Shown here piece by piece: positions 7,242 through 51,765 of a DNA stretch of 64,000 bases. The notes under the pieces were generated by a model. It had not been told where the DNA came from and did no database searches. It saw only the letters and a list, made by a program, of their open reading frames with translations. Each line of letters starts with the position of its first letter. Positions within the stretch are counted from its first letter, which is position 1. This DNA is from Candidatus Bathyarchaeia archaeon (GTDB lineage Archaea; Thermoproteota; Bathyarchaeia; Bathyarchaeales; Bathycorpusculaceae): the NCBI GenBank assembly GCA_049515895.1, contig JBEKTQ010000013.1:1-64000 (forward strand), written 5' to 3'. Both the position numbers and the translations under genes were made by a program.

Positions 7242-7838
7242 TCACTTCGTCACCTGAGCAGATATAGAACCTTTCTTAATCGTCTTCAAAACTGCTTCGA
7301 TGTTAAGCGAGCAATCAATTATTGTGTTGACGCTGAATAACTCTGACACTTGATGTGCATCGCTTCCCGCTGTACCTGGCAAATCCATGCTTTTCGCAAG
7401 TGCCTTAGCTTCACTGTTCGCCTGAGCCGACGAATTTCCGTTGAGAACCTCAACAGCATCAAAATTGTAGTTTCTCGCCAAATCCCCCATGCCGTACACT
7501 CGGAAGGGATGAGCCACAGATGTTACTGCACCGATGCTTTTCGCGTAATCAACCACGCATTCGGGACTCCAAGGTTTAGGCGGCAACTGCTCCGTACCCA
7601 AAACCAAAACGTCACCGTACTCAGTGGTGATCTCAGCGCCTGGAATAATCAGTACGTCAGGGTAAGCTTTAGCCAACTCAACCGTAGCTTTGACACCTCT
7701 AACGCTGTCATGGTCGGTAACCGCTGCAACTTTTATGAAGCTGTGCGCAGAAAGCATCTCAACTAGAGTTTTAGGTTGAATAAGGGAGTCAGAAGAGTAA
7801 ACAGTGTGAATATGAAGGTCGGCGCATAGAGGTCTTAT
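7242..7838 (-). CDS. PHP-domain metal-dependent phosphoesterase (probable ATA start)
   Basis: ADLHIHTVYSSDS lies upstream of the called ATG; also TDHD, AHP and GSDAH motifs. Confidence 0.85.
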   Translation of the reverse strand: MRPLCADLHIHTVYSSDSLIQPKTLVEMLSAHSFIKVAAVTDHDSVRGVKATVELAKAYPDVLIIPGAEITTEYGDVLVLGTEQLPPKPWSPECVVDYAKSIGAVTSVAHPFRVYGMGDLARNYNFDAVEVLNGNSSAQANSEAKALAKSMDLPGTAGSDAHQVSELFSVNTIIDCSLNIEAVLKTIKKGSISAQVTK

Positions 7839-8447
7839 AAAGAAACCCCCTTTAGCATTCTAGGAATTATTATTACGTTCATCTCGGGGGTTAAAGGTCC
7901 ATCGTTGTAAAAAGCCTTACTTACACAGCGATAAAATTAAATGCTAAATGCTTCAGATTAAGACGCCGCTCGTTTCAAATAAAAAAAGACAACCGCTGAA
8001 AGTTACGCGAACAAGATTTTGCTAATTTAGCCTACTGGCCTTCGCTAATTGACTCATGTTATTGGAAACTTGGTAAATCCTGCTTCTCAAAAAAGCTTAT
8101 TTCAAAAGCAAGGGCATATTTCAAGCGAGGAGACCGGAGAAGAGTTAATCACGCTCTCAAAATTAGACCAAAAAATCGGACAGCCGGAGAGCACCTAAAA
8201 ATGAAAAGTCAACATGAATTAATCAAGGAAGGCAAAACAAGTTTTTGCGGTGGAATCTACAACCATTATCGTAACCAAAGCACAGGGCGAAGGGAAGGGA
8301 GCGAAGTAAAATGAAACTTTCCAAGAAACAATTTAAGACAAAGCAACAAGCAATCCTCAATCTCGAAGCCTAACGCGTGTGATTTAGTCCTGCTTCCGTT
8401 CCGATAAATCGGTTAGCCTCGCTGGTCAACACAGGAGTTCGGTCTAT

Positions 8448-9581
8448 ATGTCAGAGTTTAAAGAATTAGAGAAAAGCATCATCAGCGTAAAGCAGCTCAA
8501 GAAGTATGTAGACCTAGCTCCTGATGAAGCACAGATGCTGGAAAAAATAATCAGAGTCCATCCTATGCGCATAAGCCCCTATTACATGTCACTTATTGAC
8601 TGGAGCGACCCTGATGATCCAATAAGAAAAATGGCAGTGCCTTCTGTTGAAGAACTAAGCCTTGAAGGGTCCTATGATACAAGTGGAGAAACAGAAAACA
8701 CGATAGTTCCCGGGCTGCAGCATAAGTATTCGGAAACAGCTTTGATTTTAGCTACGAACCAATGTGCAATGTACTGCAGACATTGTTTTAGGAAACGGCT
8801 TGTGGGTTTGCCAAATGAAGAAATCCTGAGGCGTTTTGAGGATGCTGCGGCTTATATTGCAGAGCATCAGGAAATAAACAACGTACTGATCAGTGGAGGA
8901 GACCCGCTTGTGCTTGACAGTACAATCATCAAGAGATTCCTTGAACTTCTGGATAGGATAAAACATATCAGATTCATTAGAATCGGAACCCGTGTTCCAG
9001 TCACTTTCCCAGCGAGGCTTTCTGATTCAAAGCTTCTGGCTATTCTAAAGAAATATTCGAAGAGCGACAAAAGGCTTCATATTGTGACCCATTTTAATCA
9101 CCCTCGAGAAATAACACTTCAGTCTATTGGCGCTGTGAACAATCTGCTTGATGCCGGCGTTCTAGTCAGCGATCAGACTGTTTTGTTGCGCGGAATTAAC
9201 GATAATCCTGACACGCTTGCAACCTTGATGAATGGACTCGTCAGTATTGGTGTGATGCCTTACTATGTCTTTCAATGTCGTCCAGTGAAAAGGGTTAAGC
9301 ATCATTTTCAAGTTCCTTTGTGCGAAGGATCTAGGATAGTGGAAAAAGCAAAAGCAAGCTGCAATGGTATTAGCAAACGCTTCAAGTATATCATGTCACA
9401 CGTAACCGGGAAGCTAGAGATACTTGGCATAATGCACGGAGAGATTTACTTTAAGTATCACGAAGCCAAAGACAGGGAAAACTTAGGAGTCATGTTCAAG
9501 TGCCGAATAGATGAAGCTGCAGGATGGCTTGATGAATTTAGAGATGCAAAATGGCTTTCAGTTTTAGGCGATACAAGCTAG
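8448..9581 (+). CDS. kamA: KamA-family radical SAM protein (lysine 2,3-aminomutase-like)
   Basis: PGLQHKY, CAMYCRHCFRKR, SGGDPL, THFNHP, QTVLLRGINDN. Confidence 0.85.
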   Translation: MSEFKELEKSIISVKQLKKYVDLAPDEAQMLEKIIRVHPMRISPYYMSLIDWSDPDDPIRKMAVPSVEELSLEGSYDTSGETENTIVPGLQHKYSETALILATNQCAMYCRHCFRKRLVGLPNEEILRRFEDAAAYIAEHQEINNVLISGGDPLVLDSTIIKRFLELLDRIKHIRFIRIGTRVPVTFPARLSDSKLLAILKKYSKSDKRLHIVTHFNHPREITLQSIGAVNNLLDAGVLVSDQTVLLRGINDNPDTLATLMNGLVSIGVMPYYVFQCRPVKRVKHHFQVPLCEGSRIVEKAKASCNGISKRFKYIMSHVTGKLEILGIMHGEIYFKYHEAKDRENLGVMFKCRIDEAAGWLDEFRDAKWLSVLGDTS

Positions 9582-33922: not shown

Positions 33923-34183
33923 CTTCGTCAAGAATTTCACCTCCTTCTCAGTCTGAAAAGCATTGATATCATTCGCAAACGATAACATGAGCCGTTGTGT
34001 CTAACCTTTCGCAATCACAAGAAAGGAGTCAGCGTTTCCTTAGATTGCTAACTGGTTCTTCAGATTGGGGTAAATGGACCAAGTTTCACTTTGCGTTAAC
34101 CTTGAAAGGTGAACTTTGAGTCTGTAGTTTGGCTTCATACAGGATATATATTGATTTTACTATTTTCATTTGAAGGTTTGCTC

Positions 34184-34651
34184 ATGACAGATAAGGCAAG
34201 AATACTCTTAATAGACGATGACAAAAACATCCGTCAAACATTGGAAATTGTTCTTCAAGAAGAAGGCTACATTGTTGACACGGCTGAGACTGGGAAAGAA
34301 GCTGTTGAAAAGACTTTTGCTAATTTCTATAACATTGCGATCGTGGATTGGCGATTGCCCGACATTGACGGAACAATACTTATTACACAACTGAAAGAAA
34401 CAACGCCGAAAATGGCAAAAATAATGCTCACAGGCTACCCGTCTATGAACAACGCGATAGAGGCAGTCAACCAGCACGCCGACGCTTTCCTGGTAAAACC
34501 AGTCGCCGTTGAAGAACTGCTGAAGAAAATCCGTGAACTCCTCATCCTGCAACAAGAAAACAGGGAGTTTGCTGAAACAAAAATAGTATCCTTTATCGAA
34601 ACTAGAACTCAACAAATCTTGCAAGAAGACGGCATGCGACCTGAAAAATAG
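34184..34651 (+). CDS. Stand-alone response regulator receiver protein
   Basis: ILLIDDD, DWRLPDIDG, LTGY, FLVKP. Confidence 0.9.
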   Translation: MTDKARILLIDDDKNIRQTLEIVLQEEGYIVDTAETGKEAVEKTFANFYNIAIVDWRLPDIDGTILITQLKETTPKMAKIMLTGYPSMNNAIEAVNQHADAFLVKPVAVEELLKKIRELLILQQENREFAETKIVSFIETRTQQILQEDGMRPEK

Positions 34652-34734: not shown

Positions 34735-34998
34735 CTAGTCTCTGCATTTGAGACCCTTATGAGCCTGCAAGACAATTGATGTGACCGTGCCCTTTACTCC
34801 ATGAATTTTCATGATCTTGTTTTTTAAGATATCTCGGAACTGTTCAATGTCGGAAGCTGATATAAGCGCGACTATGTCAAACTCTCCAGTCACCTCGTGA
34901 AGCTCTTCAACGTCCTCCATTCTAGAGAGAGCCTCGACGACTTCGTCTATTAGTTGTGATTCAACAAAAATATCAACGAAAGCGTGAAGATGCGGCAA
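34735..34998 (-). CDS. Stand-alone Lrp/AsnC ligand-binding (RAM) domain protein
   Basis: EVTGEFDIV ... KIMKIHGVKGTVTSIVL; no HTH. Confidence 0.88.
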   Translation of the reverse strand: MPHLHAFVDIFVESQLIDEVVEALSRMEDVEELHEVTGEFDIVALISASDIEQFRDILKNKIMKIHGVKGTVTSIVLQAHKGLKCRD

Positions 34999-35052: not shown

Positions 35053-36330
35053 TTATTCGAAGAATATATGTTTAAGGTTCATAACATCTCTGTATTGGAC
35101 TACGCCAACTATTTTTCCATCTGGGTCAACTATTGGCAGCGCTCTGAAGCTGTATCTAGCGAAGAGCAGCGAAGCGTCTTTAAGCGTGCTTGTCGTTTTT
35201 AAGAAAATAAAATTTCGCTGCATTATGTCTTCAAGCTTTGTCGTAGCCTTTAGCGGCGCTTTCAACAGCTCTTTTATGTCGATGACCCCCAATAATTTTC
35301 CTTCAGCGTTGATAACGTAAAGGTACATAACTTCATCTTTGTCCTCAGCATCTTTCGGGTAATCCTCTTGCGCCTTCATCACAGTTTCGTTGGGTGGATA
35401 GCTTAGAAATTTTTGCGTGGCAAAATTGATAACGTTTTCATTGTGTTGTCCAAGAATAGCTTGAATCTTAGCTACATTATTTTTGACCATTGATTTCATT
35501 ATTGCTTCGGCTTCTGGGACGGGCAATACTGAAAGTATGTCGGCGGCTTGACCAGGCGTCATGACGTTGAGAAGTTGGGCAACCTTTTTCTTTTCTAACG
35601 AAGCTATTAATGCCCTTTGAACAGTAGGATTTATTTCTTCTAGAGTGTCTGAAGCTCTCTCCTCAGTCAGTCCGTCAAAAATCTTGACCCTATGCTCATT
35701 ATCCATTTCTTCTAGAACGTCCGCCAAGTCCACGGGTCCCAACATGTCCAATTTATCTTTTAGGACTTTAAGTTTTATCTCTCCCTTAAAACTTCCAAGG
35801 TTTTCTAAAGGTTGGATGTACGTCCAAGGAACCATCTTGCTTTCTTCGACTTCCCCAACGGTCTTAGCCAAAAAACGAAGATGCATTCTTTTGTAAAGTC
35901 TTTGTTTGCTAAAGTCCACGTCGCAAACGTACAGCTTGCCGTTTTTCATTGTGAGAAGTATGTCGTAAACAACATCTATGTCGCGTTCTTCAACATCTAA
36001 GACTTTTTTGTCAAGAACATAGTCTTTAAGCAAGATCGCTTCTTCTTGGAGGTCTTTCGCGTAATCGGCCACATCACCAATGTTAACACCAACTTCTTTC
36101 TTTGAAAAACTAGTTACCTTTTCCCACTCAATAATCAATGGAGGATAACCAAAAGACCGCCCAACATACAGGTGGGTGACAACTGGGAACTTTCCACCGT
36201 TTTCTTTAACGATCAGGTCAGCAAGTTTTCCAATTTTCTTCGTGTCTTTCAGGACCCTTTTACCAATCATGTCGCTCAGGAAGAATTGTTTCTCATTTTG
36301 GGTTTCTGCATGTGCAGCCATGTCAATCAC
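35053..36330 (-). CDS. PRC-barrel / MgtE N-domain / CBS-pair cytosolic protein
   Basis: FFLSDMIG..V, VLDKKVLD, DLADVLEE, tandem CBS domains; no TM domain. Confidence 0.85.
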   Translation of the reverse strand: MIDMAAHAETQNEKQFFLSDMIGKRVLKDTKKIGKLADLIVKENGGKFPVVTHLYVGRSFGYPPLIIEWEKVTSFSKKEVGVNIGDVADYAKDLQEEAILLKDYVLDKKVLDVEERDIDVVYDILLTMKNGKLYVCDVDFSKQRLYKRMHLRFLAKTVGEVEESKMVPWTYIQPLENLGSFKGEIKLKVLKDKLDMLGPVDLADVLEEMDNEHRVKIFDGLTEERASDTLEEINPTVQRALIASLEKKKVAQLLNVMTPGQAADILSVLPVPEAEAIMKSMVKNNVAKIQAILGQHNENVINFATQKFLSYPPNETVMKAQEDYPKDAEDKDEVMYLYVINAEGKLLGVIDIKELLKAPLKATTKLEDIMQRNFIFLKTTSTLKDASLLFARYSFRALPIVDPDGKIVGVVQYRDVMNLKHIFFE

Positions 36331-36528: not shown

Positions 36529-37794
36529 TTATCCAAAGAGCCTTGGGAAGATTGTGCCCATGGCGTAGAGTGTAGATAACAAAATTATTGTTACAATTAT
36601 GATTACCGCAAGTATATTTTGCAACTTCGAATTTTTGTATTTCCCCACAACCTCTTCTTGATTTAGGAGCAGGAGTAAAAACGTGAGCGCTGCCGGAAGC
36701 AACGTCACAGCAATCACCTGAACAAACAGTGTGATTAGTATGAGCGGAGCCTTTGGAATTAAGACTATTGTTGCTGCTCCGACTAGTATTAAGACACGGA
36801 ATACGTAGAATCCTGGTGCTGCTTTAAATGGATGGTTAAGCGAGTGCGGCCACCCGAAAACCTCACCCCATGCCCAAGCACTGGCTAATGATATACATAT
36901 GGCACCAAGGAGCCCAGCGTCAAAAAGACCAATTGCAACAGCGGTGCCCACATACCTATTTATGGATAGTATTCGTAATGCACCTGTTGCTGCATCTTGT
37001 ATGTTAGCGTGAGGAAGAAGAGTGGCAAAGATAATTATGCAGAAGACGGCAACGATAATCGTGAAGAAGCTTCCGATCGCTGTGTCCACTCGGGAGAATT
37101 TAATGTCTTTTTCTTGAATGCCTTTGTCTACTACAGAACTCTGTTGGAAGAAGATCATCCAAGGAGCTATTGTTGTGCCAATATTAGCCATAATGAAGAA
37201 CATAACATTGCTAGTGAGTCCATATGGAAAGCTTGGAATAAGACCACTTAATGCAGAATGTAGAGGAACGTTGATCAAAAACGCTGCTGGGATAAATATC
37301 AGGTTGAGAACGCAAAATACAAGAACAATTTTTTCCCAGGTCCAGTAGCGTCCAGAAATAACCATTGACATGATCAAGCAGATGACCACGATGACCGTGA
37401 TTATGGACGGCACGCCAAAGATGCTCAGGGCGGCAGTCATCCCGACAAATTCCGTTACTATTGTCAAGAAGTCTGTCAACGTCAAATCAAGAAGGGAAAA
37501 CCAGCCCCAAAATGAACCAAAGGCATCAAAAATTGCCTCAGCGTGGCCACGTTTTGTTATCGCCCCAAGCCTGACAGTCATTTCTTGGCAAATGTAAGCT
37601 ACAGGTCCCAGAAGGACCTCAATCCAGATAAAGCTGAAGAGGAAAAGAGCTCCTGTCACTGTGTAGGTTGTAATACCTCCAGCGTCGTTGTCCGCAACCA
37701 TCACAATGATGCCTGGGCCAGCTATAGCCAAGAAGAGTGAGAACATTTTTGCGGATCTTCGCCAAACATAGTATAAGCGGGATAGAAGATTCAT
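36529..37794 (-). CDS. Nramp-related divalent cation (probably Mg2+) transporter
   Basis: GPGII..ADNDAGGITTY, QEMTVRLG, IGTTIAPWM..FQQS. Confidence 0.88.
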   Translation of the reverse strand: MNLLSRLYYVWRRSAKMFSLFLAIAGPGIIVMVADNDAGGITTYTVTGALFLFSFIWIEVLLGPVAYICQEMTVRLGAITKRGHAEAIFDAFGSFWGWFSLLDLTLTDFLTIVTEFVGMTAALSIFGVPSIITVIVVICLIMSMVISGRYWTWEKIVLVFCVLNLIFIPAAFLINVPLHSALSGLIPSFPYGLTSNVMFFIMANIGTTIAPWMIFFQQSSVVDKGIQEKDIKFSRVDTAIGSFFTIIVAVFCIIIFATLLPHANIQDAATGALRILSINRYVGTAVAIGLFDAGLLGAICISLASAWAWGEVFGWPHSLNHPFKAAPGFYVFRVLILVGAATIVLIPKAPLILITLFVQVIAVTLLPAALTFLLLLLNQEEVVGKYKNSKLQNILAVIIIVTIILLSTLYAMGTIFPRLFG

Positions 37795-39801: not shown

Positions 39802-39841
39802 AATATAAATATACTTATGAATTGTTCATAATTTTTCATAA
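39802..39841 (-). promoter_or_regulatory. Shared-motif promoter P1
   Basis: ttatgaaaaatTATGAACAA-ttcataagtata-TTTATA (12-nt spacer). Confidence 0.75.
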
Positions 39842-39925
39842 ACTCTAAACAAGCGTCTAAAACCATACAGAAAATTTATATGCGATAACCGCAATTACTT
39901 TAATTAAAAAAGAGGTAAAAAAAAA

Positions 39926-40162
39926 TTGAAAGCCTATATTCTCTTAAGCACCAAGCCAGGCACATCGTTGGAAGTCGTTAAGAGGCTAAAAGAAAAAGTC
40001 AAAGAAACCGTTACCGCCGACGCCATATTCGGACGATATGACGCAATCGTAGTGCTTGAAGCTCAAGCGCTCGAAGAAATAAACCAAGTTGTTTACAGAA
40101 TAATCGAAAAAGATCCCAACGTCATCCGAACGGAAACATCCATCGTCCTGTCACCGATGTAG
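39926..40162 (+). CDS. Stand-alone Lrp/AsnC ligand-binding domain protein
   Basis: KAYILL..KPG ... FGRYDAIV ... VIRTETSIV. Confidence 0.88.
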   Translation: MKAYILLSTKPGTSLEVVKRLKEKVKETVTADAIFGRYDAIVVLEAQALEEINQVVYRIIEKDPNVIRTETSIVLSPM

Positions 40163-40252
40163 TTCTCAAGCGAATGCTATAAGAACCCCAATATTTTTTG
40201 TTTTAATCCCTAGTTTCTTACAAACCGGAAAAAAGTCAAATAAAAATCGTTT

Positions 40253-40546
40253 CTAAGCTGTCGGCGGTTCAGATTGACCGTCTTCCTCGGTGCACTTCGG
40301 CCCTTTATGAGCTTTAAGCACGATGGAACTGACTGTGCTTTTTACGCCTTTTATTTTCATGATTTTGTTCTTGAGGATCTCTCGAAATTCCTCTATGTCT
40401 GCTGCTGAGACCAATGTTACGATGTCAAATTCCCCTGTGACTTCGTAGAGTTCTTCGAGATGGTCCAATTCTGCAAGTGAGGTTAGGACGCTGTCCATTT
40501 CTGGAGATTCTACAAATATGTCCACGAATGCTAGTAATCTTGGCAT
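40253..40546 (-). CDS. Stand-alone Lrp/AsnC ligand-binding domain protein
   Basis: EVTGEFDIV ... KIMKIKGVKSTVSSIVLKAHKGPKC; close paralog of 34735 and 45092. Confidence 0.88.
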   Translation of the reverse strand: MPRLLAFVDIFVESPEMDSVLTSLAELDHLEELYEVTGEFDIVTLVSAADIEEFREILKNKIMKIKGVKSTVSSIVLKAHKGPKCTEEDGQSEPPTA

Positions 40547-40726
40547 ATGGGTCGTCTTTCCTATTTGAACATCGAACTCGGATATTTATACTTTTTCTTG
40601 CAATACGGACATTACTTTCATTTTTTACACGACAATTGCGCAGTATTATAAAAATAAGTTGGACACATGTTAAAATACGCTAAAGCGAGCCTTCTATCAA
40701 CAAGCAACCATCACCCGACATTGGCC

Positions 40727-41203
40727 CTAACCATTTGCAGTGAAATTACCATAGACCAAAGGGTAATCCTTTATCAACAGCAAATTAAGCTGCAAAACAT
40801 CGACGTATGGATTTCCGAAAACCCAAAGCGTTCCCTGCTGATTCCGATTAACGATGCCAGTTAACGTTTCAGCGGGAATGCCTGTTGCGTTGCTTACCGC
40901 GGGTACCTGTGAAATGGCGTCCCGAAGCGTGATGTCTGGGTCAACGCCTGATGCTGAAGGATCAGAGGTTTCGTTTCTTGTATGGAAGAAAATGGGCAGT
41001 GTAAAGCTTTGCGCTATAAGGGTTGACCCGATGGTTTGACCGTTAGGTAACTTGGCTAAGTCGCCGTTCGCTTGGTTGGAGAAGAAAACTTGGCCTATGC
41101 CAGTGATAAAAAACGGGTAAAGTAATCCGCAGATCAGCAGCGAAACAAGTGCTAATCCGATAATTGGTTTGAAGTTCCATTTTTCCTTCTCTTGTTCAGT
41201 CAT
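40727..41203 (-). CDS. kdpC: K+-transporting ATPase subunit C
   Basis: GLLYP..ITGIGQ..F..QANG, GSTLIAQ, SASGVDPDI, VDVLQLNL. Confidence 0.93.
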   Translation of the reverse strand: MTEQEKEKWNFKPIIGLALVSLLICGLLYPFFITGIGQVFFSNQANGDLAKLPNGQTIGSTLIAQSFTLPIFFHTRNETSDPSASGVDPDITLRDAISQVPAVSNATGIPAETLTGIVNRNQQGTLWVFGNPYVDVLQLNLLLIKDYPLVYGNFTANG

Positions 41204-41215
41204 TGTGGCTTTCTC

Positions 41216-43390
41216 CTAAACATGAAACACTCCGGTAAGTAGCAAGTCGATTAGTTTGATGCCAATGAAGGGCACTATAACTCCGCCTACCCCGTAGATT
41301 AACGTGTTCTTGAGAAACAGGGACATTGTGCTTGTTGGTTTGAAGGCAATGCCGCGCATGGCGAGCGGAATCAGGAGCGGAATGATTATAGCGTTGAAGA
41401 TAAGAGCTGAAAGGACAGCGCTTTTCAAGCCCAAATGTAAGACGTTGAGGCTGCTCAACTCTGGAATGGCCGTTGCAAAGATAACAGGCATAATTGCGAA
41501 ATACTTGGATACGTCGTTGGCGATGCTGAAAGCTGTTACAGCGCCTCTGGTCATCAGCAGTTGCTTTCCAAGCATTACCACCTCAATGATTTTGGCTGGA
41601 TTCGATTCCAGGTCTACCATGTTTGCAGCCTCTTTTGCGGCTTCTGTGCCAGAATTCATAGCTAATCCAACATCGGCGGCGGATAATGCGGGTGCATCGT
41701 TTGTTCCGTCTCCAATCATCGCGACGATTCTGTTTTCAGCCTGTTCCCTCTTCGCTATCTTGTATTTGTCTTCAGGTTTAGCTTGAGCAACGTACTCGTC
41801 AATTCCAACCTCTGCTGCTATGCTTTTTGCAGTGAGAGGTTGATCCCCTGTAATCATAACTGGGCGAATCCCCATGACCTTAAGGGCTTGTATCTTCTCT
41901 TTGATGCCTACTTTGAGCACATCCTTCAACCTGATTATTCCAAGAACTAGCCCGTTTCTTGCAACTGCTATGGGAGTTTCTCCAACCGCAGAAATGCCGT
42001 TTACGACATAGTCGAAATCTGTTGGGACACAGTCGGCTTGCGCTTTGATAGATTCAGGCGCCCCTTTCATAATCTCAATTTCTGGTTCAAGCATCGCAGT
42101 CTCCGCTTCCCCTCCCACCGCCGAAGTTTTTCTTCTCATTCTTGTTCGTTGTGTTATGCCTTTGCCTCCTTTTGGCAGCGTGAGGCCCGCATGGGTTATT
42201 TTTACTCCACTTGTGCGGGTGGTGGCTGAGAAGGCGTAAACTTCAGAGGTTGCAAGCGAGTTTAGTTCTTTAGGCACGAAGCCATTTTCGTAAGCAAGTT
42301 TCAGTATGCTGCGCCCCTCGGGGGTGTCATCGTGCCATGAGGACAGAAACGCTGCTTCTCCGACGTCTTCTTCGGTATAGCGTTCGAAAGGAACGAATTG
42401 TATCGCCTGTCTGTTGCCAACAGTGATTGTGCCTGTTTTGTCTAGAAGAACTACATCTGCGTCTCCAGCGGTTTCTATGGCTTTTCCTGATTTAGCGATT
42501 ATCTTGCTTTTGTATAGTCGGGACATGCCAGAGAGTCCGATGGCTGGGAGCAAGGCTCCTATGGTTGTCGGAAGGAGGCAAACGTACAGCGCGATAAGCA
42601 CGGACAAGTCGGCGCCAAGACTAAGAGTTACCGATGTTCCGAGCAAGGCAACTATGATTATGGTGAATATGGCGGTTAAACCGATAAGAACGATGGTTAT
42701 CGCAACCTCGTTTGGAGTCTTTGGTCTCTTGGAAGATTCCACCATCTTTATCATTTGGTCAATGAAGGTTTCTCCAGGGTTAGTTGTAACCTTCGCCGTC
42801 AGGCTGTCGCTAACAACTTTTGAGCCTCCAATAAGCGAGTCTCCAGGAGCTTTCCTGACCGGAGCTGACTCACCGGTAACAAGCGACTCATCAACCATCG
42901 CGATCCCTTCGATAACGTCAGCGTCTAGGGGAACCACGTCGCGGGTTTCGATAAGGACCAAATCGTCTTTTCGCAGGTCAGTTGATTTCATAGCAATAAT
43001 TTTTCTAGTCCATGCCTCAGTGACTATTTTTTTGGCTGGCACTTCTGTCTCCAGTTTTCTGAGGCTGCCAGCGGTGCTTTTTGCTTGTTGTTCAGCAAGC
43101 GCGTCAGAGAGTGTGCTAAACCAGACTGTGATCAGCAGGATGATGGCGACTTCAATGTAGAAAATCTGCAGGCTAGGGCTAGCGACTGGCACGAATGCCT
43201 TTGGAAATATAGCCATCGCTGCTACAATGTAGAATGTAACTTCAACAATAAACATCACTGGATTCTTAAGCAGAGATTTAGGATTGAGACGGACTACAGA
43301 GTCAACTAGCACTTTTCCAGAGAAAGCGGAACGCATTCCCCCAGCCGAATCTTTAGTCTTGTTTGACTCAACGGTGTTTTCAATGGCCAA
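41216..43390 (-). CDS. kdpB: K+-transporting ATPase subunit B
   Basis: NPVMF, TGES, PTTIG, DKTGT, GDGTNDAPAL, SIANDVSKYF. Confidence 0.96.
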   Translation of the reverse strand: MAIENTVESNKTKDSAGGMRSAFSGKVLVDSVVRLNPKSLLKNPVMFIVEVTFYIVAAMAIFPKAFVPVASPSLQIFYIEVAIILLITVWFSTLSDALAEQQAKSTAGSLRKLETEVPAKKIVTEAWTRKIIAMKSTDLRKDDLVLIETRDVVPLDADVIEGIAMVDESLVTGESAPVRKAPGDSLIGGSKVVSDSLTAKVTTNPGETFIDQMIKMVESSKRPKTPNEVAITIVLIGLTAIFTIIIVALLGTSVTLSLGADLSVLIALYVCLLPTTIGALLPAIGLSGMSRLYKSKIIAKSGKAIETAGDADVVLLDKTGTITVGNRQAIQFVPFERYTEEDVGEAAFLSSWHDDTPEGRSILKLAYENGFVPKELNSLATSEVYAFSATTRTSGVKITHAGLTLPKGGKGITQRTRMRRKTSAVGGEAETAMLEPEIEIMKGAPESIKAQADCVPTDFDYVVNGISAVGETPIAVARNGLVLGIIRLKDVLKVGIKEKIQALKVMGIRPVMITGDQPLTAKSIAAEVGIDEYVAQAKPEDKYKIAKREQAENRIVAMIGDGTNDAPALSAADVGLAMNSGTEAAKEAANMVDLESNPAKIIEVVMLGKQLLMTRGAVTAFSIANDVSKYFAIMPVIFATAIPELSSLNVLHLGLKSAVLSALIFNAIIIPLLIPLAMRGIAFKPTSTMSLFLKNTLIYGVGGVIVPFIGIKLIDLLLTGVFHV

Positions 43391-45044
43391 TGCCGTTCAA
43401 CCATCCTTTGAAAAATGATGATATTGGTCCGATCGCTAGGAACGGGAAGAAAGTCAACACAACCAGTATTATGATGGAAGCAATCAAGACTATCGTGAAT
43501 ATCAATGTGTCAGTCTTCAGACCTGAAGTTGTTCCGCCGCGTTTTCTGCCAATCATTGACCCGGAAAGCGCCAGCAGTATGGCTATGGGAGCGTAGCGTC
43601 CGATCAGCATCACGATGGCAGTTGCTATGTTGAAATACGGCGTGTTTCCTGAAGCTCCTAAGAAGTCTGAGCCGTTGTTGGCGGCGGCGCTAGTAAATTC
43701 CCAAAGAATTTGGGTGTATCCGACGGAGCTTCCGCTCACGCCTATGGCGCTTACAGCACCACTGGCATAGGCTAACACCGTGGGTACTAGTATTATGATT
43801 GGGTGGATAAGAAACGCGATCATTACAAGTTTAACGTCTCGTCCCGTGATTTTCATGTTCAAGTATTCAGGTGTTCTTCCCGACATGAGACCCACAACGA
43901 AGACGGTTATTATGATGAACATAACCATGTACATCATGCCGACTCCTTTCCCGCCTGGGATTGACTGTATAAACATGCCAAGGAAACCAGATAGAATCGT
44001 CAAAGGATGGTTTCCTAAAAGTGCTGAGTTTAGAGAGCCTGTTGTGGCCACGGTTGTTGTAACGGTATAGAAGCTGGACATGAAGCCGCCAAATCGAACT
44101 TCTATGTCAGGCGCCACCAATGGAAGTGCGGGAATAAACGCTATAACCAAATTAACGCCGAAAAGAATGTAGGCGCCCCATAGAAGAGGTCTGGCCTCGG
44201 TTTTTTTGCCAATCATTTGTCCGAAAACGAAGATTAATGCTGTGGGAAGCAGAAGCATAAGGGAAATCATGAGGATGTTGGTGATTGGTGAGGGGTTCAT
44301 AAATGGATAGGCAGCGTTTGCACCATAGAATCCGCCGCCGTTAGTGCCTATCTGCATTATGGAGTCAAGAGAGGCCACTGGCCCAACAAGTATCGTTTGA
44401 GTGGCTCCTTGTATTGTCTTTACTGTGGTGTAACCATTGAGGGTTTGGGGCACCCCTAAAGCCAGAAATATGATTGAGGCTATGATGCAGAGGGGCAGGA
44501 CAATTCTCGTGAGCGCTCTTGTGAAGTCAGCATAGAAGTTGCCCATGTCTTTTGCTCCAGCAACCAGTCCTCGTATGAAGGCAATTCCCATGCATAGTCC
44601 TGTGATGGCAGAGGTAAATTGAAGCCATTGTATAACACCGATTTGACTAAGATATGACAAAGTGGTTTCGCCGTTATAGTGCTGAAGGTTTGTGTTTGTC
44701 ACAAACGAAGCTACAGTATTAAAAGCGAGGTCAGGTCTGACGCCAGGGAAGCCCATCGGGTTAAGCGGCAAGTTGCCTTGGAATACAAGCATTATAAAGC
44801 CAATAATCATCATAACAACGTTTGTCAGCAGTCCGGCGAGGAAGTACTGCTTCCAACCCATCGTTTGCTCTGAGTTCACGCCTGTGATTTTGTAGATGAA
44901 GTTCTCGATTGGGTTCAGTATTTTGTCTAGGCGGCTTGGTTTTCGCTTAAAAACTCCTGTGATGTAGGGGGCTATTAACCAAGCTAGAAGTATGGTTATT
45001 CCAATTATAAGAATAACCGTCAGCGCCTGAACTATATCGATCAA
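43380..45044 (-). CDS. kdpA: K+-transporting ATPase subunit A
   Basis: SFVTNTNLQHY, GTNGGG, GGKGVG, GRTPEYL, SAAANNGS. Confidence 0.96.
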   Translation of the reverse strand: MIDIVQALTVILIIGITILLAWLIAPYITGVFKRKPSRLDKILNPIENFIYKITGVNSEQTMGWKQYFLAGLLTNVVMMIIGFIMLVFQGNLPLNPMGFPGVRPDLAFNTVASFVTNTNLQHYNGETTLSYLSQIGVIQWLQFTSAITGLCMGIAFIRGLVAGAKDMGNFYADFTRALTRIVLPLCIIASIIFLALGVPQTLNGYTTVKTIQGATQTILVGPVASLDSIMQIGTNGGGFYGANAAYPFMNPSPITNILMISLMLLLPTALIFVFGQMIGKKTEARPLLWGAYILFGVNLVIAFIPALPLVAPDIEVRFGGFMSSFYTVTTTVATTGSLNSALLGNHPLTILSGFLGMFIQSIPGGKGVGMMYMVMFIIITVFVVGLMSGRTPEYLNMKITGRDVKLVMIAFLIHPIIILVPTVLAYASGAVSAIGVSGSSVGYTQILWEFTSAAANNGSDFLGASGNTPYFNIATAIVMLIGRYAPIAILLALSGSMIGRKRGGTTSGLKTDTLIFTIVLIASIIILVVLTFFPFLAIGPISSFFKGWLNGIGH

Positions 45045-45091
45045 TTATTTCGAAACTCCAGATTGCATTTGTACTCACTATGGCTCCTACC

Positions 45092-45385
45092 TCAACTTGT
45101 GGTTGATGTAATAATTGTCTTTTGGCACCTACGTCCTTTATGTGGCTTCAGTATAATAGTGCTTATGGTGCTTTTGACGCCGCGAATCTTCATTATTTTC
45201 TTTTGCAGGGTGTCGCGAAATTCTTCAAGAGTTGAAGTGCTTACGAGAGTGACGATGTCATATTCGCCTGCGACTTCATAGACTTCCTCAATGTTTTCAA
45301 GCTTTCGCAAAGCGGCTACCACTTGATCTATTTGGGTTGTGTCGGCGAAGATGTTGACTGATGCTAAGAACTTGCTCATTTTCAT
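45092..45385 (-). CDS. Stand-alone Lrp/AsnC ligand-binding domain protein, first large gene of the kdp operon
   Basis: EVAGEYDIV ... KIMKIRGVKSTISTIILKPHKG. Confidence 0.88.
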   Translation of the reverse strand: MKMSKFLASVNIFADTTQIDQVVAALRKLENIEEVYEVAGEYDIVTLVSTSTLEEFRDTLQKKIMKIRGVKSTISTIILKPHKGRRCQKTIITSTTS

Positions 45386-45520
45386 TCATCCTCCAATTTG
45401 CGAGTGAATTCGAAATCTGAAACTTGCAAGCAGTATATGAAATGACAAGAAACCGAAACACAATACACATGAACGTTGTTCAAGTTCAACATAATAATCA
45501 GCGAGATCCAAAGGATTTTG

Positions 45521-45622
45521 CTATGGAACCTCTTCGAGGCCCCTTCGCATTTTGTTTAAGAAGGCCAAATCATAGATTCGGCTACCTTTTCCGCCAAGAA
45601 ATTTACTTTCAACACGGTTCAA
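45521..45622 (-). CDS. Candidate 33-aa leader ORF of the kdp operon
   Basis: TTG start after strong AGGAGG SD: (M)NRVESKFLGGKGSRIYDLAFLNKMRRGLEEVP*. Confidence 0.55.
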   Translation of the reverse strand: MNRVESKFLGGKGSRIYDLAFLNKMRRGLEEVP

Positions 45623-45671
45623 TTTTTAGCCTCCTTTCTCCCTTTTAACATATGGGGTATTGACAACTATT

Positions 45672-45710
45672 ATATAAGCTTAATTATGATTTGTTCATAC
45701 TTTTCAATAA
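45672..45710 (-). promoter_or_regulatory. Shared-motif promoter P2 (kdp operon)
   Basis: ttattgaaaagTATGAACAA-atcataattaag-CTTATATA (12-nt spacer). Confidence 0.75.
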
Positions 45711-46142
45711 TGTCTGAATATTTTACGAAGAAATTTGGAAAAGTTCGAAAAAAAACACATAAAACACGAACAATGTTGAAAGTTTATTGCTCATGCCGTC
45801 TGAGTCGCCGGGCAAGAGATCATTTTTGGAACTGAAGCCTGCACCATTTTCCAGAATTTAATTAGCTTTTGGCGCGTTTGTTCAATACTGACTTATGCTT
45901 ACTCGACACCTCCGCCTAAAGGTTTGTGGTTTTTCAAGTTACTTGCTTTACATGAAGGTGCTACGTTGAAGCGAACAAATGTTGGACATGGAGTCTCACA
46001 CGGCATAGAAGCCTTCCTAAGATGGTACAGTTTGATATGTGGCGGCTCTCTCGAAGGAATGATAGGAACAAATATCCAAGTAAATGGCAATTGATCAGCC
46101 AAACGTCTAATTCCACCTATCTTAATTGTACAGCTTTTTTAT

Positions 46143-46184
46143 TTTTCATAAAAGTTATGAACAATTCACAATTATGTTTATATA
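46143..46184 (+). promoter_or_regulatory. Shared-motif promoter P3
   Basis: ttttcataaaagtTATGAACAA-ttcacaattatg-TTTATATA (12-nt spacer). Confidence 0.78.
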
Positions 46185-46235
46185 GGATGCTCTCTCCTTA
46201 TAAATCGTTCAACAAAATTGAAAATTGGTGAAAAA

Positions 46236-46334
46236 ATGTTTGGATTAATGGATTTGGTCTGGACATGTGTCATAGTGGGGTCGATAGCGACAATTGGCTA
46301 CCGACTGCGTTTAGAGTTTAGAATGAACAAATAA
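46236..46334 (+). CDS. 32-aa single-TM peptide B (not in ORF track)
   Basis: MFGLMDLVWTCVIVGSIATIGYRLRLEFRMNK*; GGTGA SD; paralog of 39655..39759. Confidence 0.75.
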   Translation: MFGLMDLVWTCVIVGSIATIGYRLRLEFRMNK

Positions 46335-46862
46335 TTTATGAGCTCACTTCTTGTCTACAACACTAATTCTTCGATTTTTCTCGAATTTTCGCTAAGATAA
46401 TCCTTACAAGGCAAACGTTAAAGTTTTTGCAATAATCGTGACTGGCAATAAAACTTGGAGAATTAGCATCCGCAGGGGTTCTTCTCAAAGAAAAATCAAG
46501 TGGGTTACCGAAGGTTAGATACCCTTTTTTTCCAAGAATAAATATTTAACAGAACAGTTGAGATTTCAATTGTAACAATCGTGCTCTGGTATTTCCCCGT
46601 TATCGTGTATAAATTTAACGATTAAATCGAACTCCGGCGGGCTTCGAGATCAATTCTTTTCGATGTTCCGCTTGCAACTTCCTCTTTAGCTTTTTTTCTT
46701 TTGGATTCTTCCCGGAGTTTTACAGTTTAGTTCCCATTAGAAGCAAGATTTCATCTCTTTCCTACTTTTTTAGCGGATCTAATTTTTATTTTGTTCAACA
46801 AAAATAGCGGATAATGGCTTTTTATACATTAATTTATTTATTTTATGAAAATATTTACAGTT

Positions 46863-46903
46863 ATTCATAATTATTATGAACAAATCTTAATCAGGTTTAT
46901 ATT
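46863..46903 (+). promoter_or_regulatory. Shared-motif promoter P4 (APC permease)
   Basis: attcataattatTATGAACAA-atcttaatcagg-TTTATA (12-nt spacer). Confidence 0.78.
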
Positions 46904-46945
46904 TCGCCGGATTTGCTATATGGTACTAAAGTTCGGTGTTACCAA

Positions 46946-47083
46946 ATGAAAAAGGAAAAGGAATCTCCAAATGTAAACAGGACAAACAGAAAACACGACG
47001 CATTACTCGTTAAAAAGAGCAAAAAACTATTTTCTGCTATTTTCAGCTTGCCACTCAGAGGAGGGAAAATAGATACCTACTGA
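46946..47083 (+). CDS. Candidate 45-aa basic leader ORF overlapping the APC start region
   Basis: MKKEKESPNVNRTNRKHDALLVKKSKKLFSAIFSLPLRGGKIDTY*; GGTG SD. Confidence 0.5.
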   Translation: MKKEKESPNVNRTNRKHDALLVKKSKKLFSAIFSLPLRGGKIDTY

Positions 47084-48680
47084 CTCCACAGATGCAGGAC
47101 CGCGAAAGTCACCGTCATTGAAAAAAACTCTCGGCCTGGGAGGCGTTACAATAAACGCCATGGCCTTAATAGCTCCAGGAGCATTCTTATGGCTCACCTT
47201 TCAGATAAACGCAGCTCAGACCTCGCCGTCAGGGGCTTCAACGGCATTTGACATTTGGCCTGGCCTTCTATTAGCATTAATTTTGGCGTTCCTAACTGCA
47301 GCTTCTTATTCGTGGCTAGCACGGCGTTACCCAGATGCTGGTCCCGGCAGCTCGTATTACTTTGCTCAAAGAGCTTTACTAGATAACGGAAGCAGCAACA
47401 AATTAGCTAGAAACGCAAAGTTCGGAGTCGGATGGATTTCCCACCTCTACTATTGGGTCTATCCAGGGGTCATGGTTGCAGCAATGTCTATCCTACTTAC
47501 TTGGATTCTATCGGTACTTGGTTTCAGTGTTTCACCCTTAGGCGAAATCGCCATAGCCAGCTTATTTGCAGTCGTTACAGGTGCGATAGCCTTCCGCGGG
47601 ATTCAAGGATCAACAAGAACAAACCTCCTCCTCAACGTGGTTCAAATCGGAATGTTAGTTATCATCACCGGAATGGCGTTGGCATACCGTTTTATTAACC
47701 CTCAACATGTGACCTTTACGTTCACCAGTGTTGGCGGAATAGTTACGCCGCACGATATTGGCAACGTGTTATTCCAAGCGACAATCGCAATCTTAGTGCT
47801 TGTCGGATTCGAATCCGCAACCGCTTACACTGGAGAAGCAAAAGACCCCAAGGTTGTTCCAAAGGCAATCATTTTGTCATTGATCATCCAAGGAGCCTTC
47901 GCTTACATGTTTGAATACTTCGGAGCTGAAGCATGGATGAACTCAAGCTATAGTATAACACAAAGCGGCCAGAAATTTGCAGGATTTGGAGCAGCTGGAA
48001 TTTCAAGTGCCCCTATCGGTGATATGGTTCATAACCTTGGGAACGTGTTCCTCGGAGGCAACGGAGTCACATTAGAATTAATAGTAGCGGCAATTGTGGC
48101 TGCTGCAATATTAGGCACTACGCTTGCTTGCATGAACACTGGCGTTAGAGTAACCTACGCGATTAGCCGAGATACTGAAGTGCCTTATCAACTTAGCAAA
48201 CTAAACCCAAAATACTCTACTCCAGCGATTGGTATCTGGATAATGACAGCTGTCGCAGCCGCTATAGGATCTTTCGGGGTACTGACGATAACAAACCTAA
48301 CTTCAATTACGTTGCTATCTAACTTTGGCACCTTCCTGCTCTATGGAGTCACAAACATTGTAGCACTAATCGCATTCACTAAAGAACGAGCTTCAATACT
48401 AAAACGCAAAGTGGTTCCAATCGCAGGCCTCGCCGCCAACGCCCTAATGCTAGCTACTATCATTTACCTCAGCGTAGCTGGCGGAGGAACTCCCCAGTTG
48501 GAAGGAGCTTTTGCTATAGTTGGCACCGCAATTTGGTTGTTATTAGGTTTAGTCTATTTCCGTTTTAACTCAAAATCAATGCCTTCCGGTTTATTTCCAT
48601 TCCCAGGCAAAGATGAGGATGAGCGCAATGCTGCGAAAGTCACTAAACCCAGAACCTTCAAGTTATGGAAAAAAGATTAG
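47073..48680 (+). CDS. APC-superfamily permease (probable ATA start at 47073; TTG at 47118 is the alternative)
   Basis: LKKTLGL, ALIAPGAFLW, GSSYYF, LVGFES...GEAKDP, about 12 TM helices. Confidence 0.88.
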   Translation: MPTDSTDAGPRKSPSLKKTLGLGGVTINAMALIAPGAFLWLTFQINAAQTSPSGASTAFDIWPGLLLALILAFLTAASYSWLARRYPDAGPGSSYYFAQRALLDNGSSNKLARNAKFGVGWISHLYYWVYPGVMVAAMSILLTWILSVLGFSVSPLGEIAIASLFAVVTGAIAFRGIQGSTRTNLLLNVVQIGMLVIITGMALAYRFINPQHVTFTFTSVGGIVTPHDIGNVLFQATIAILVLVGFESATAYTGEAKDPKVVPKAIILSLIIQGAFAYMFEYFGAEAWMNSSYSITQSGQKFAGFGAAGISSAPIGDMVHNLGNVFLGGNGVTLELIVAAIVAAAILGTTLACMNTGVRVTYAISRDTEVPYQLSKLNPKYSTPAIGIWIMTAVAAAIGSFGVLTITNLTSITLLSNFGTFLLYGVTNIVALIAFTKERASILKRKVVPIAGLAANALMLATIIYLSVAGGGTPQLEGAFAIVGTAIWLLLGLVYFRFNSKSMPSGLFPFPGKDEDERNAAKVTKPRTFKLWKKD

Positions 48681-48981
48681 CTCCTTTTTTTTCTTTATTA
48701 GAGAAAACTTAATTCGATTGACAACTAAGCTCAGATATCTCGGAAAGGACTTCGGAACTTCGCTTCTTCAAGTTTGATTCCGCCACAAAAACTTCAACGA
48801 CTTCTTTTTTGTGGCAACTAAGTCATGGCACGAAACAATCTACATCTGCTGCATTTATTCTCGCAAGCTGCCAAAAGAAATGAAAAGTCTTTACGAAATT
48901 TTGCGCCCCATCCGTACAGCAAAAAGAGATTCACAACGAGTCACGAAAGTGCAAGGTGTAGTTTGTTTTCCAATTCATCTA

Positions 48982-49089
48982 TTATTTCTTCAAAATTCTT
49001 TTTCGAAGGATGATGTGGGGTTGCCTTTGAGCGTCTATAACGATTAATTCTTCAATGTTATGTTCAGTCACTTTGGTAACTTCTCTCAG
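48982..49089 (-). CDS. Candidate 29-35 aa small ORF behind promoter P5
   Basis: (M)REVTKVTEHNIEELIVIDAQRQPHIILRKRILKK*; ggtgttac SD context identical to the ORF at 46946; GTG at 49071 is the alternative start. Confidence 0.45.
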   Translation of the reverse strand: MREVTKVTEHNIEELIVIDAQRQPHIILRKRILKK

Positions 49090-49131
49090 TAGTAACACCA
49101 ATTTAAGTTTAGCAATTTAAGTATCCAATCA

Positions 49132-49174
49132 AATATAAATGTAGTTAATATTTGTTCATAACTTTTATGAAAAA
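49132..49174 (-). promoter_or_regulatory. Shared-motif promoter P5
   Basis: ttttcataaaagtTATGAACAA-atattaactaca-TTTATA (12-nt spacer); 22 nt identical to P3. Confidence 0.78.
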
Positions 49175-50970: not shown

Positions 50971-51411
50971 TTAAATCACTTTGCTGTATTCTTTTACAGC
51001 GTTGAGTGCGACCAGTGTCGTGGTTCTTTTGATGAATCGTTCAGTTAAAAGCTTTTTCAAAAAATCGTTAAGGCTCGGGTTATCTTGGAATTTGGCAAAG
51101 ACCACTGCATCGTATTCTCCAGTTATATCATACACGGACAGCACATTGCCTTCTTTAGCTATTTCGTCTTCAACTTCCCGAATGTGTCCTCCCTCGATCT
51201 GAATCATAATTATGGCTGTAAGAGCAAATCCCATTTTCGCTGAGTCAACAATGGGGACGTACCCGAGGATTATGCCTTTGTGTTCAAGGGCTTCAAGATG
51301 TTTATGTAAAATGTTTGGAGTTACCCCGACTCTTTGGGCTAACTTACGTAAGCTTGAACGTGAATCGTCTTCCAGTGCTCGTATTATTTGCATATCGAGA
51401 GAGTCTGACAT
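50971..51411 (-). CDS. Full-length Lrp/AsnC transcriptional regulator
   Basis: DSLDMQIIRALEDDSRSSLRKLAQRVGV HTH plus YDITGEYD RAM domain. Confidence 0.92.
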   Translation of the reverse strand: MSDSLDMQIIRALEDDSRSSLRKLAQRVGVTPNILHKHLEALEHKGIILGYVPIVDSAKMGFALTAIIMIQIEGGHIREVEDEIAKEGNVLSVYDITGEYDAVVFAKFQDNPSLNDFLKKLLTERFIKRTTTLVALNAVKEYSKVI

Positions 51412-51765
51412 GTTCTTTGGGTTTTTTTTGGGTTTTAAGCCCAAATTTCTCACGCCCCAATCGTTTGTTTGACGTTTGTTTAGTAAATCAAGGAATATAT
51501 AAACATCACCGCAAAGAAATTGGAATAATGTAAACATCAGTTGGAGCGACAGCCAAGAAAAATAGACAATCGATGTATGAATACTTAACGAATGTGCAAG
51601 TTATCAAAATTACGCCGGTTCACCAGATTAGACATAGGATAATGCGATGATTAGCAAGGCAACGGCCGTGCTGCTGCAATGCCCAGTTCCATGCACAGAA
51701 TAACTTAATAACACCTGCCGCTAAGTAGGATAACCTGTTCAACCCCTAAAGATTGTTTAAAACTG

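Follow-up and report, generated by a model that had tools for sequence, protein, structure and literature searches.

The 64,000-nt stretch of a Candidatus Bathyarchaeia archaeon genome analysed here (contig JBEKTQ010000013.1 of assembly GCA_049515895.1; hereafter the window) contains five closely similar promoter sites, and a sixth lies on another contig of the same genome. All six are copies of one 42 bp promoter module. We consider it moderately probable that this module marks a one-component regulon for the acquisition of ammonium, potassium and nitrogen, rich in micro-proteins and belonging to one family of Bathyarchaeia, and that it is bound by a ribbon-helix-helix (RHH) activator. In this genome the module covers a RAM-kdpABC-RAM operon, an APC permease gene and four units made up only of micro-open reading frames (micro-ORFs). 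Its targets in relatives further include genes for ammonium transporters, for glutamine and asparagine synthetases, for a CitMHS permease and for a P-type ATPase. We read this set as a programme by which a lineage without PII, NrpR or KdpD acquires nitrogen and the monovalent cations NH4+ and K+. The predicted regulator is a 185-aa RHH one-component protein encoded at C2:47908-48462 (the prefix C denotes contigs, L loci fetched from related genomes and G genomes). It would bind the module with at least two dimers lined up on the same face of the helix and would most likely activate transcription by recruiting TFB or TBP, because the sites lie just upstream of the B recognition element (BRE) and TATA box. 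Membrane micro-proteins would be the most frequent output; they are probably small subunits or modulators of transporters, with one family, here called A, tied to Kdp.

Bathyarchaeia are abundant archaea that have not been cultured, and we know of no experimental work on how their genes are regulated. A literature search, in part too loose to be informative, found no description of this motif, of a regulator combining RHH and V4R domains, or of any Bathyarchaeia regulon, and the motif string itself matched only primers and unrelated text. The regulon is defined across 62 genomes and paired with a candidate regulator, and a single recombinant protein with a few oligonucleotides would be enough to test the pairing. 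It also suggests how NH4+ and K+ uptake could be controlled without PII, NrpR and KdpD.

The promoter module

The window is contig C13 of a 3.18-Mb assembly in 53 contigs. The pattern TATGAACAA-N12-YTTATA matches it exactly five times, at 39804-39830(-), 45673-45699(-), 46156-46182(+), 46875-46901(+) and 49134-49160(-), against a mean of 0.00 in 100 dinucleotide shuffles of the window, which served as the background expectation. These counts bear out the sequence-only reading, an earlier inspection of the window that ran no database searches and that had listed five sites with TATGAACAA, a 12-nt gap and YTTATA. The palindrome TTCATAA-N3-TTATGAA, which the same reading had placed at three of the sites, is present at 46145, 46864 and 49155 (3 of the 5 window sites) and nowhere else in the 3.18-Mb genome. 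Two of the sites, P3 and P5 (the window sites are numbered P1 to P5), had been said to share 22 identical nucleotides; the shared run exists, with a corrected length of 23 consecutive bases. The bare 9-mer TATGAACAA occurs six times in the window, where 0.8 copies are expected; its sixth copy, at 34444-34452(+), lies within a response-regulator ORF (34109-34651) with no TATA at the required spacing and is taken as a chance occurrence.

The genome-wide check proposed for the motif returned a single further exact site, at C10:94856-94882(-), and nothing else in the genome resembles the motif. A matrix built from the six sites of this genome scores its own sites at 52.7-58.4 bits and the next best genomic position at 7.2 bits; when the TATA part is removed, the six sites score 41.2-46.8 bits against 16.6 for the next best. 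With a second matrix, built from 58 distinct sites of relatives, the same six sites reach 41.7-60.0 bits and nothing else in the genome reaches 8 bits, a separation to be read with the caveat that the relatives' sites were initially chosen with this genome's matrix, so that the second matrix is not fully independent. The reversed genome gave no match when scanned with the relatives' matrix.

Similarity among the five aligned window sites extends for ~42 bp and then ends. The consensus of this 42 bp module, derived from the sites of relatives, is TTTcatAAaAaTTATGAACAAATCAcAActAnnTTTATATt, in which TTCATAA, N3, TTATGAA, CAA and ATCACAA follow one another, giving three 7-bp half-sites with a 10-bp period. 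The distal half-site is TTCATAA; the central one, TTATGAA, is nearly invariant and is followed by CAA; the proximal one is ATCACAA. Five bases separate the proximal half-site from the TTTATAT box, the half-sites abutting BRE/TATA, and a near-consensus TTTATAT box is found at all six promoters of this genome. The fixed distance between motif and TATA that had been claimed for the window holds well beyond it, at 12 nt in all six sites here and in the 58 distinct sites of relatives. Per-column information content over these 58 sites shows conservation limited to the half-sites and TATA, with variable spacers. If transcription starts ~25 nt after TATA, as is general for archaeal promoters, the half-sites would lie at about -62 to -36. 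Further downstream, a Shine-Dalgarno-like GGTGA or GGTG starts 27-42 nt past the module, with the start codon 4-8 nt beyond it.

The individual copies vary in strength. With the relatives' matrix, the P5 module (49131..49172, minus strand), 73 nt past the stop of a PiT gene, scores highest at 60.0 bits, followed by P1 (39801..39842, minus strand; 55.5 bits), P3 (46144..46185, plus strand; 54.7 bits), which has the full palindrome TTCATAA-N3-TTATGAA, and P4 (46863..46904, plus strand; 52.5 bits), which lies ahead of a leader ORF and the APC permease gene. P2 (45670..45711, minus strand), ahead of RAM1-kdpABC-RAM2, has a degenerate distal half-site and is the weakest of the six at 41.7 bits, although it contains the exact pattern like the other four window sites. 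In relatives the kdp promoters are degenerate too, scoring 21-42 bits when this genome's six-site matrix is applied, and five kdp sites of relatives scoring at least 25 bits reach 33.0-47.7 bits with the relatives' matrix. Sites orthologous to P1 occur after RAM2 in L032, L033, L034 and L046, and P1-type promoters consistently carry the distal half-site in the other (direct) orientation, as TTATGAA. Promoters orthologous to P4 are found in L031, L032 and L033 with the same order of site, family C ORF and APC permease gene.

In its architecture the module resembles the sites of Ptr2 (Methanocaldococcus jannaschii), TrmBL1/Tgr and GvpE, where a dimer-type repeat at a fixed distance upstream of BRE/TATA is common to several promoters. 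It differs from them in its three half-sites and 10-bp period and in its predicted binder, an RHH protein instead of an Lrp or TrmB protein, and its presumed activating role is deduced from position only.

Distribution and targets in relatives

The exact core pattern TATGAACANNTNNNAANNNNNNTTATA was found in 62 of 301 genomes of the order, and the reversed control in 0 of 301. Sixty of the 61 pattern-bearing genomes other than this one belong to one family; the window's genus contributes 37 of 56 genomes, and four other genera contribute 5 of 5, 10 of 16, 2 of 2 and 3 of 3. When up to one mismatch was allowed, 22 of 24 same-genus relatives had a match, often several and clustered, a few of them chance-like, and matches in other families of the order resembled controls.

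Regions around the sites were fetched from 24 relatives of the genus and from one genome of another family, and the downstream genes were identified by tblastn and Pfam. The targets were then tallied by hand over 83 distinct sites of at least 25 bits, six of them from this genome and one from the other family. Five families of conserved micro-ORFs (A to E) account for many of these sites: family A follows 19 of them (one copy is truncated and followed by a P-type ATPase gene), family B eight, family C four, always with APC type 1 next, family D seven (APC type 2 next in five), plus two remnants, namely the P5 ORF here and that of L050, and family E five. A conserved micro-ORF is the only recognisable product at 35 of the 83 sites. 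Among transporters and enzymes, the ammonium transporter (Amt) and the CitMHS permease are each found at six sites, RAM1-kdp at six (one more kdp site scores below 25 bits), glutamine synthetase (GlnA) at two, and a 169-aa protein (p169) with asparagine synthetase (AsnB) at two. APC permease genes lie downstream of ten sites, four behind family C, five behind family D, plus L050. The remainder comprises an 87-aa protein family (p87; three sites), an Lrp gene (Lrp2; one site), a radical-SAM gene after a 57-aa ORF (one site) and 11 unclassified sites.

The layout of these loci is partly shared. The common arrangement, seen in L038, runs Lrp, PhoU_div, PiT, site, family D ORF, APC type 2, site, RAM1-kdpABC-RAM2, site, family A ORF; L034 has the same layout without PhoU_div and PiT. 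The order of site, family D ORF and APC type 2 occurs in L034, L038, L046, L047 and L049, and L050 has it with a truncated 17-aa D-like ORF. In this genome, as in L032 and L033, APC type 2 is replaced by a convergent APC type 1 gene under a P4-type promoter, leaving the P5 ORF without a downstream gene. In one relative (G023:C15:65657-67179), kdpA is in three pieces, one with an internal stop, and the module is still present upstream (L047:9032); this looks like a decaying kdp operon.

The sequence-only reading had proposed a low-K+ or osmotic regulon. Its shared cis-element and the membership of kdp both stand; a pure K+ scope is unlikely, because the module drives amt, glnA, asnB and CitMHS genes in relatives. 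The amt, glnA and asnB targets point to nitrogen limitation, and kdp, together with a TrkH and an MscS gene in the clusters, points to the homeostasis of cations or of osmotic pressure. The ions NH4+ and K+ resemble each other, and the main salt of the cytoplasm consists of K+ and glutamate. Other possible signals are low K+, osmotic stress and acid stress.

Known regulators of these functions were searched for in this genome, whose completeness by marker genes is 100%. KdpD (PF02702) gave no match in it, with a control search matching 6 of 14 reference genomes, in line with the earlier proposal that the regulon is independent of KdpDE. The NrpR domain (PF01995) and PII (PF00543) likewise gave no matches in this genome, and among 41 relatives sampled from the order PII turned up in only two. 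The regulon overlaps the NrpR/PII (GlnK) system of methanogens in its amt and glnA targets; it differs in the failure to find either of these regulators here, in its operator sequence and in the inclusion of kdp.

Two candidate sites near nitrogen genes of this genome were examined and rejected. Upstream of glnA2, the second glutamine-synthetase-like gene (C5:2480-2850, minus strand), TGTGAACAG-N12-TTTATA forms a degenerate copy at the correct spacing, and at glnA a distal TTATGAC-N3-TTCATAA lies ~85 nt before TATA; both score below 8 bits and were not counted as sites.

An RHH protein as candidate regulator

While the flanks of the sites were being annotated, a gene for the 185-aa RHH protein was found to end ~50 nt before the site in several loci. 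The N-terminal RHH domain (PF01402) is above cut-off in all three proteins scanned (E 3.3e-09 to 4.2e-05). The protein has 732 database relatives, the best 120 of which are 82-100% identical and are named "hypothetical" or "Arc/MetJ-type regulator". Counted without regard to kinship, RHH gene and motif occur together in 57 of 301 genomes, with motif only in 5, RHH gene only in 16 and neither in 223; within the window's genus (57 genomes) the corresponding numbers are 36, 2, 5 and 14. When the RHH gene was used as bait in 80 species, a site of at least 20 bits was found on the same strand within 400 nt after its stop, usually at ~50 nt, in 30 of 80 loci, and anywhere within ~6.5 kb in 33 of 80. 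With no more than a few sites in 2-3 Mb of each genome, this adjacency is a large excess. Outside the family only one genome has the motif, and it too carries the RHH gene, arranged as RHH, site, amt, PII.

In 19 sequences with identities as low as 60%, the RHH beta-strand does not vary in any residue. Also invariant are GEH.I.DVDHW, H103, E105 and C124, which would suit a ligand or metal site. In a structure model predicted from the alignment of these 19 sequences, residues 3-59 align to RHH antitoxins, PutA and NikR at Z 5-6. Residues 75-185, which match no Pfam family, align to H-NOX (Z 8.0, 7.8 and 7.5), TRAPP Bet3 (7.7) and the phenol-sensing domains of PoxR/DmpR (5.6-5.8), and also to YslB and BcsD, values near 8 being middling for that search. 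Foldseek returned the same fold families at TM-scores of ~0.4. We regard an H-NOX/V4R-like sensor fold as likely for the C-terminal domain, though not as established. NikR-type regulators offer a parallel: the protein here likewise has an N-terminal RHH domain (those of NikR and PutA align to it at Z ~5), and joined to it is a conserved C-terminal domain with many invariant His, Asp, Glu and Cys residues. It differs from NikR in this C-terminal domain, which resembles the H-NOX, V4R and Bet3 folds, not the ACT-like fold, and in operator geometry. RHH regulators of the Arc/MetJ/CopG/NikR kind use operators of short repeats on one helix face, as this protein would if it binds the module. The promoter of the RHH gene is itself conserved across 12 genomes, and ATTTGTTTAATAA, ~60 nt before its TATA (L071:1340-1515), resembles the reverse complement of the operator core; it may be a weak autoregulatory site, too weak to call.

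The sequence-only reading had instead put forward a neighbouring Lrp/AsnC-family gene, Lrp-K (Lrp 50971; 50971..51537, minus strand; PF01037 + PF13412), as the protein that possibly runs the regulon. A version of that idea, in which an Lrp-family activator binds the module (Lrp-K here, paralogues elsewhere, possibly as mixed oligomers with RAM proteins) and governs a low-K+ or osmotic regulon, draws on several positional facts. Lrp-K lies 1.8 kb from P5 here and directly upstream of a P5-type site in L034, RAM-only genes flank kdpABC at every kdp locus examined, and the inverted AT-rich half-sites ~10 bp apart may resemble Lrp-type boxes. Lrp2, a second paralogue of ~40% identity, lies directly upstream of a site-amt-site-CitMHS cluster in L035, L040, L042, L044 and L045 and beside sites in L031. 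We nevertheless consider this account unlikely. An orthologue of Lrp-K (66-77% identity) was found in 7 of 25 genus genomes only, set against motif matches in 22 of 24 relatives, which leaves the earlier proposal of Lrp-K as the general regulator without support. The third paralogue (C11:80820-81242 here) occurs almost everywhere, including throughout motif-free families, and G001 and G010, which have sites, lack Lrp-K and Lrp2 and carry only this ubiquitous paralogue and distant ones, none near a site. The recognition helices of the three paralogues also differ (TPNILHKH, SGVMASAR and SVGTVLSR) although the operator core is nearly invariant, and the relatives' targets include amt, glnA and asnB. 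On strong circumstantial evidence, the RHH protein fits as regulator better than Lrp-K. The module probably answers to a so far undescribed regulator, not to the neighbouring Lrp gene, and we infer that neighbouring Lrp-type genes are local co-regulators at most. As for Lrp-K itself, stop codons occur in the N-terminal extension of its orthologues and the conserved part starts near MSDSLD; the first ~40 codons of the ORF are probably untranslated, and the true start is probably an internal Met near residue 43.

Even if the RHH protein binds the module, it could act as a repressor, blocking TFB/TBP at the BRE-proximal half-site so that the strong TATA box fires upon release by a ligand. The third half-site ends 5 bp before TATA and overlaps the BRE position, a strong TATA at all six promoters fits repression as well, and many RHH regulators, among them MetJ, Arc, CopG and NikR, repress. 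In the archaeal cases of Ptr2, TrmBL1/Tgr and GvpE, however, sites upstream of BRE/TATA go with activation and sites at or after TATA with repression, and on this basis we regard a repressor as rather doubtful. A quite different explanation, which dispenses with selection for a shared transcription factor site, is the recent duplication or mobility of a cassette made up of promoter and micro-ORF. P1 and P3 share the promoter and a paralogous micro-ORF, P3 and P5 share their long identical run, units of family A are scattered at unrelated loci in relatives (L039, L048, L059 and L068), and the genome has no graded series of weaker sites. The conservation of half-sites and TATA with variable spacers across 58 distinct sites, the position of the module before at least 12 unrelated gene families and its retention at orthologous positions across several genera make this explanation highly improbable.

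Activation by the RHH protein, the reading that we prefer, has its own difficulties, and the following observations weigh against it. The RHH gene of this genome has no adjoining site. Five motif-positive genomes have no RHH match and 16 RHH-positive ones no exact motif, and the co-occurrence counts take no account of kinship, although related genomes are not independent samples. The structure model has a moderate pLDDT of 68.9, in addition to its middling Z-scores. In some twelve genomes a site has an Lrp-type gene immediately upstream, and a repressor would suit the strong TATA boxes too. In this genome the canonical module is missing from glnA (C5) and from the two amt genes (C18:6026-7291 and 7575-8849), so that the nitrogen link rests on relatives, the local targets being only kdp, the APC permease gene and micro-ORFs. 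Lastly, two of the micro-ORF families (C and D) have pN/pS values of 0.99 and 0.84, which show no clear purifying selection. A more ambitious version, which we put forward tentatively, holds that this single protein, with RHH and H-NOX/V4R-like parts, senses nitrogen or cation state and, through the one 42 bp operator, switches on the uptake of NH4+ and K+ along with five or more families of dedicated membrane micro-proteins, which would be the main effectors as transporter subunits or gates, family A being a functional counterpart of KdpF.

Micro-ORFs and the kdp gene cluster

The first ORFs after P1 to P5 encode 34, 33, 32, 45 and 39 aa, in agreement with the 32-45 aa given by the sequence-only reading, and four of the five belong to families conserved in relatives, which upholds its view of the micro-ORFs as a genuine part of the regulon. 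The P1 and P3 ORFs are members of family A, the P4 ORF of family C and the P5 ORF of family D. The P1 ORF (39655..39759, minus strand) encodes 34 aa with one predicted transmembrane helix and a basic tail, and has GGTGA 4 nt before its ATG; the paralogous P3 ORF (46236..46334, plus strand) encodes 32 aa and has orthologues at L032:9460-9564 and L033:10703-10798. The 45-aa family C ORF (46946..47083, plus strand) is the leader of the APC permease gene and has 58-66% identity in three relatives. The 39-aa family D ORF (48982..49101, minus strand) corresponds to the leader of APC type 2 in relatives; their TTG start reads CTG here, and another TTG, further upstream and within the Shine-Dalgarno sequence, keeps the frame open. 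Downstream of the C10 site are an ORF of 21 aa and a membrane ORF of 37 aa.

Eighteen of the 19 copies of family A are intact, with an open frame of 32-38 aa, a pN/pS of 0.56 and the pattern MFG[IL][IL]D..S.A.I..S.A....IR.ELK in the alignment of the 18 intact copies. At L031:10981-11123(-), the family A ORF is cut to 20 aa, and its promoter now lies ~700 nt ahead of a gene for a 926-aa type II P-type ATPase. The pN/pS is 0.27 for family E and 0.65 for family B, the latter value being rough as its copies vary in length. Because of their higher pN/pS values, the family C and D ORFs may be regulatory leaders instead of functional peptides. The two small ORFs between P2 and RAM1, at 45386-45511 (41 aa) and 45521-45622 (33 aa) on the minus strand, were not matched by tblastn over half or more of their length in any of 20 related loci, and, not being conserved, they are probably 5′ leader sequence and not genes. 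A Pfam scan of seven small ORFs (E <=10) gave chance-level matches only, with no match to the KdpF family; KdpF is very short and diverges quickly.

The link between family A and Kdp comes from their distribution. A kdpA gene was found in 11 of 41 relatives searched, all of the same genus, and family A sites are present in 10 of the 11 kdpA-bearing genomes; no genome of the genus without kdp had one, as far as its sites were fetched. These figures depend on the detection of family A solely through motif-linked sites and on kdp-bearing genomes that may form one clade. Complex prediction for KdpA with the family A peptide scored 0.00, which is no answer and says nothing on whether the two bind. 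Several of the micro-protein families are conserved and have regulated promoters of their own, which makes them candidates for small subunits or regulators of transporters. Methanosarcina mazei offers an archaeal parallel for micro-proteins co-regulated with genes of ammonium uptake and assimilation: of its nitrogen-regulated small proteins, sP26 is reported to act on glutamine synthetase and another on AmtB (10.1101/2020.05.06.080432; PMC10714827; PMC11456600). The families here differ in that most are predicted to be membrane peptides with a single pass, and every one has an operator copy to itself.

The gene map agrees with the earlier statement that the targets include RAM-kdpABC-RAM and an APC permease gene, both identified by Pfam. 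On the minus strand from P2, the two small ORFs are followed by RAM1 (45092..45385; PF01037, E 5.6e-15), a stand-alone RAM (Lrp/AsnC ligand-binding) protein that is the first conserved gene of the kdp operon and is syntenic in relatives, and then by kdpA (43380..45044; PF03814, E 2.2e-179), kdpB, the P-type ATPase subunit (41216..43390; PF00122 + PF00702), kdpC (40727..41203; PF02669, E 1.8e-35) and RAM2 (40253..40546; PF01037, E 2.8e-17), a second stand-alone RAM protein at the 3′ end of the operon, syntenic in relatives at 84-90% identity. P1 and its 34-aa membrane micro-ORF come next and converge on tatC. As in the bacterial KdpFABC system with KdpD/KdpE, kdpA, kdpB and kdpC are adjacent in the usual order. 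The cluster departs from that system in that no KdpD was found in the genome and none of the seven small ORFs scanned matched KdpF (E <=10), in the two stand-alone RAM genes that bracket the operon, and in the 32-34-aa membrane peptide with its own promoter that follows it.

The APC-superfamily permease type 1 is encoded at 47118..48680 on the plus strand (PF13520, E 2.3e-19) and matches NCBIfam models of amino-acid transporters only weakly, with scores well short of the cut-offs. Its suggested likeness to the K+ importer KimA found no support: compared with solved structures, the single sequence had no phmmer match at E <=0.01 and a nine-sequence profile had only two chance-level non-transporter matches at E <=1, and as no solved APC-fold transporter was matched by either route the test is one of low power. 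P5 lies on the minus strand behind the PiT phosphate transporter gene, itself preceded by a PhoU_div gene and the Lrp gene; it drives only the 39-aa ORF, the APC type 2 gene of relatives being absent here. Between the divergent P2 and P3, a 67-aa ORF at 45899-46102(-), which has no Pfam match and no half-length match in relatives, is probably not a gene. About ten stand-alone RAM paralogues with 47-62% identity to RAM1 are present in the genome, one at 34741-34983(-) in the window and the others on eight other contigs. The window paralogue lies next to genes for an MgtE-N/CBS protein (35053-36330) and an NRAMP transporter (36529-37794), and RAM-only genes may generally accompany ion transporters in this genome.

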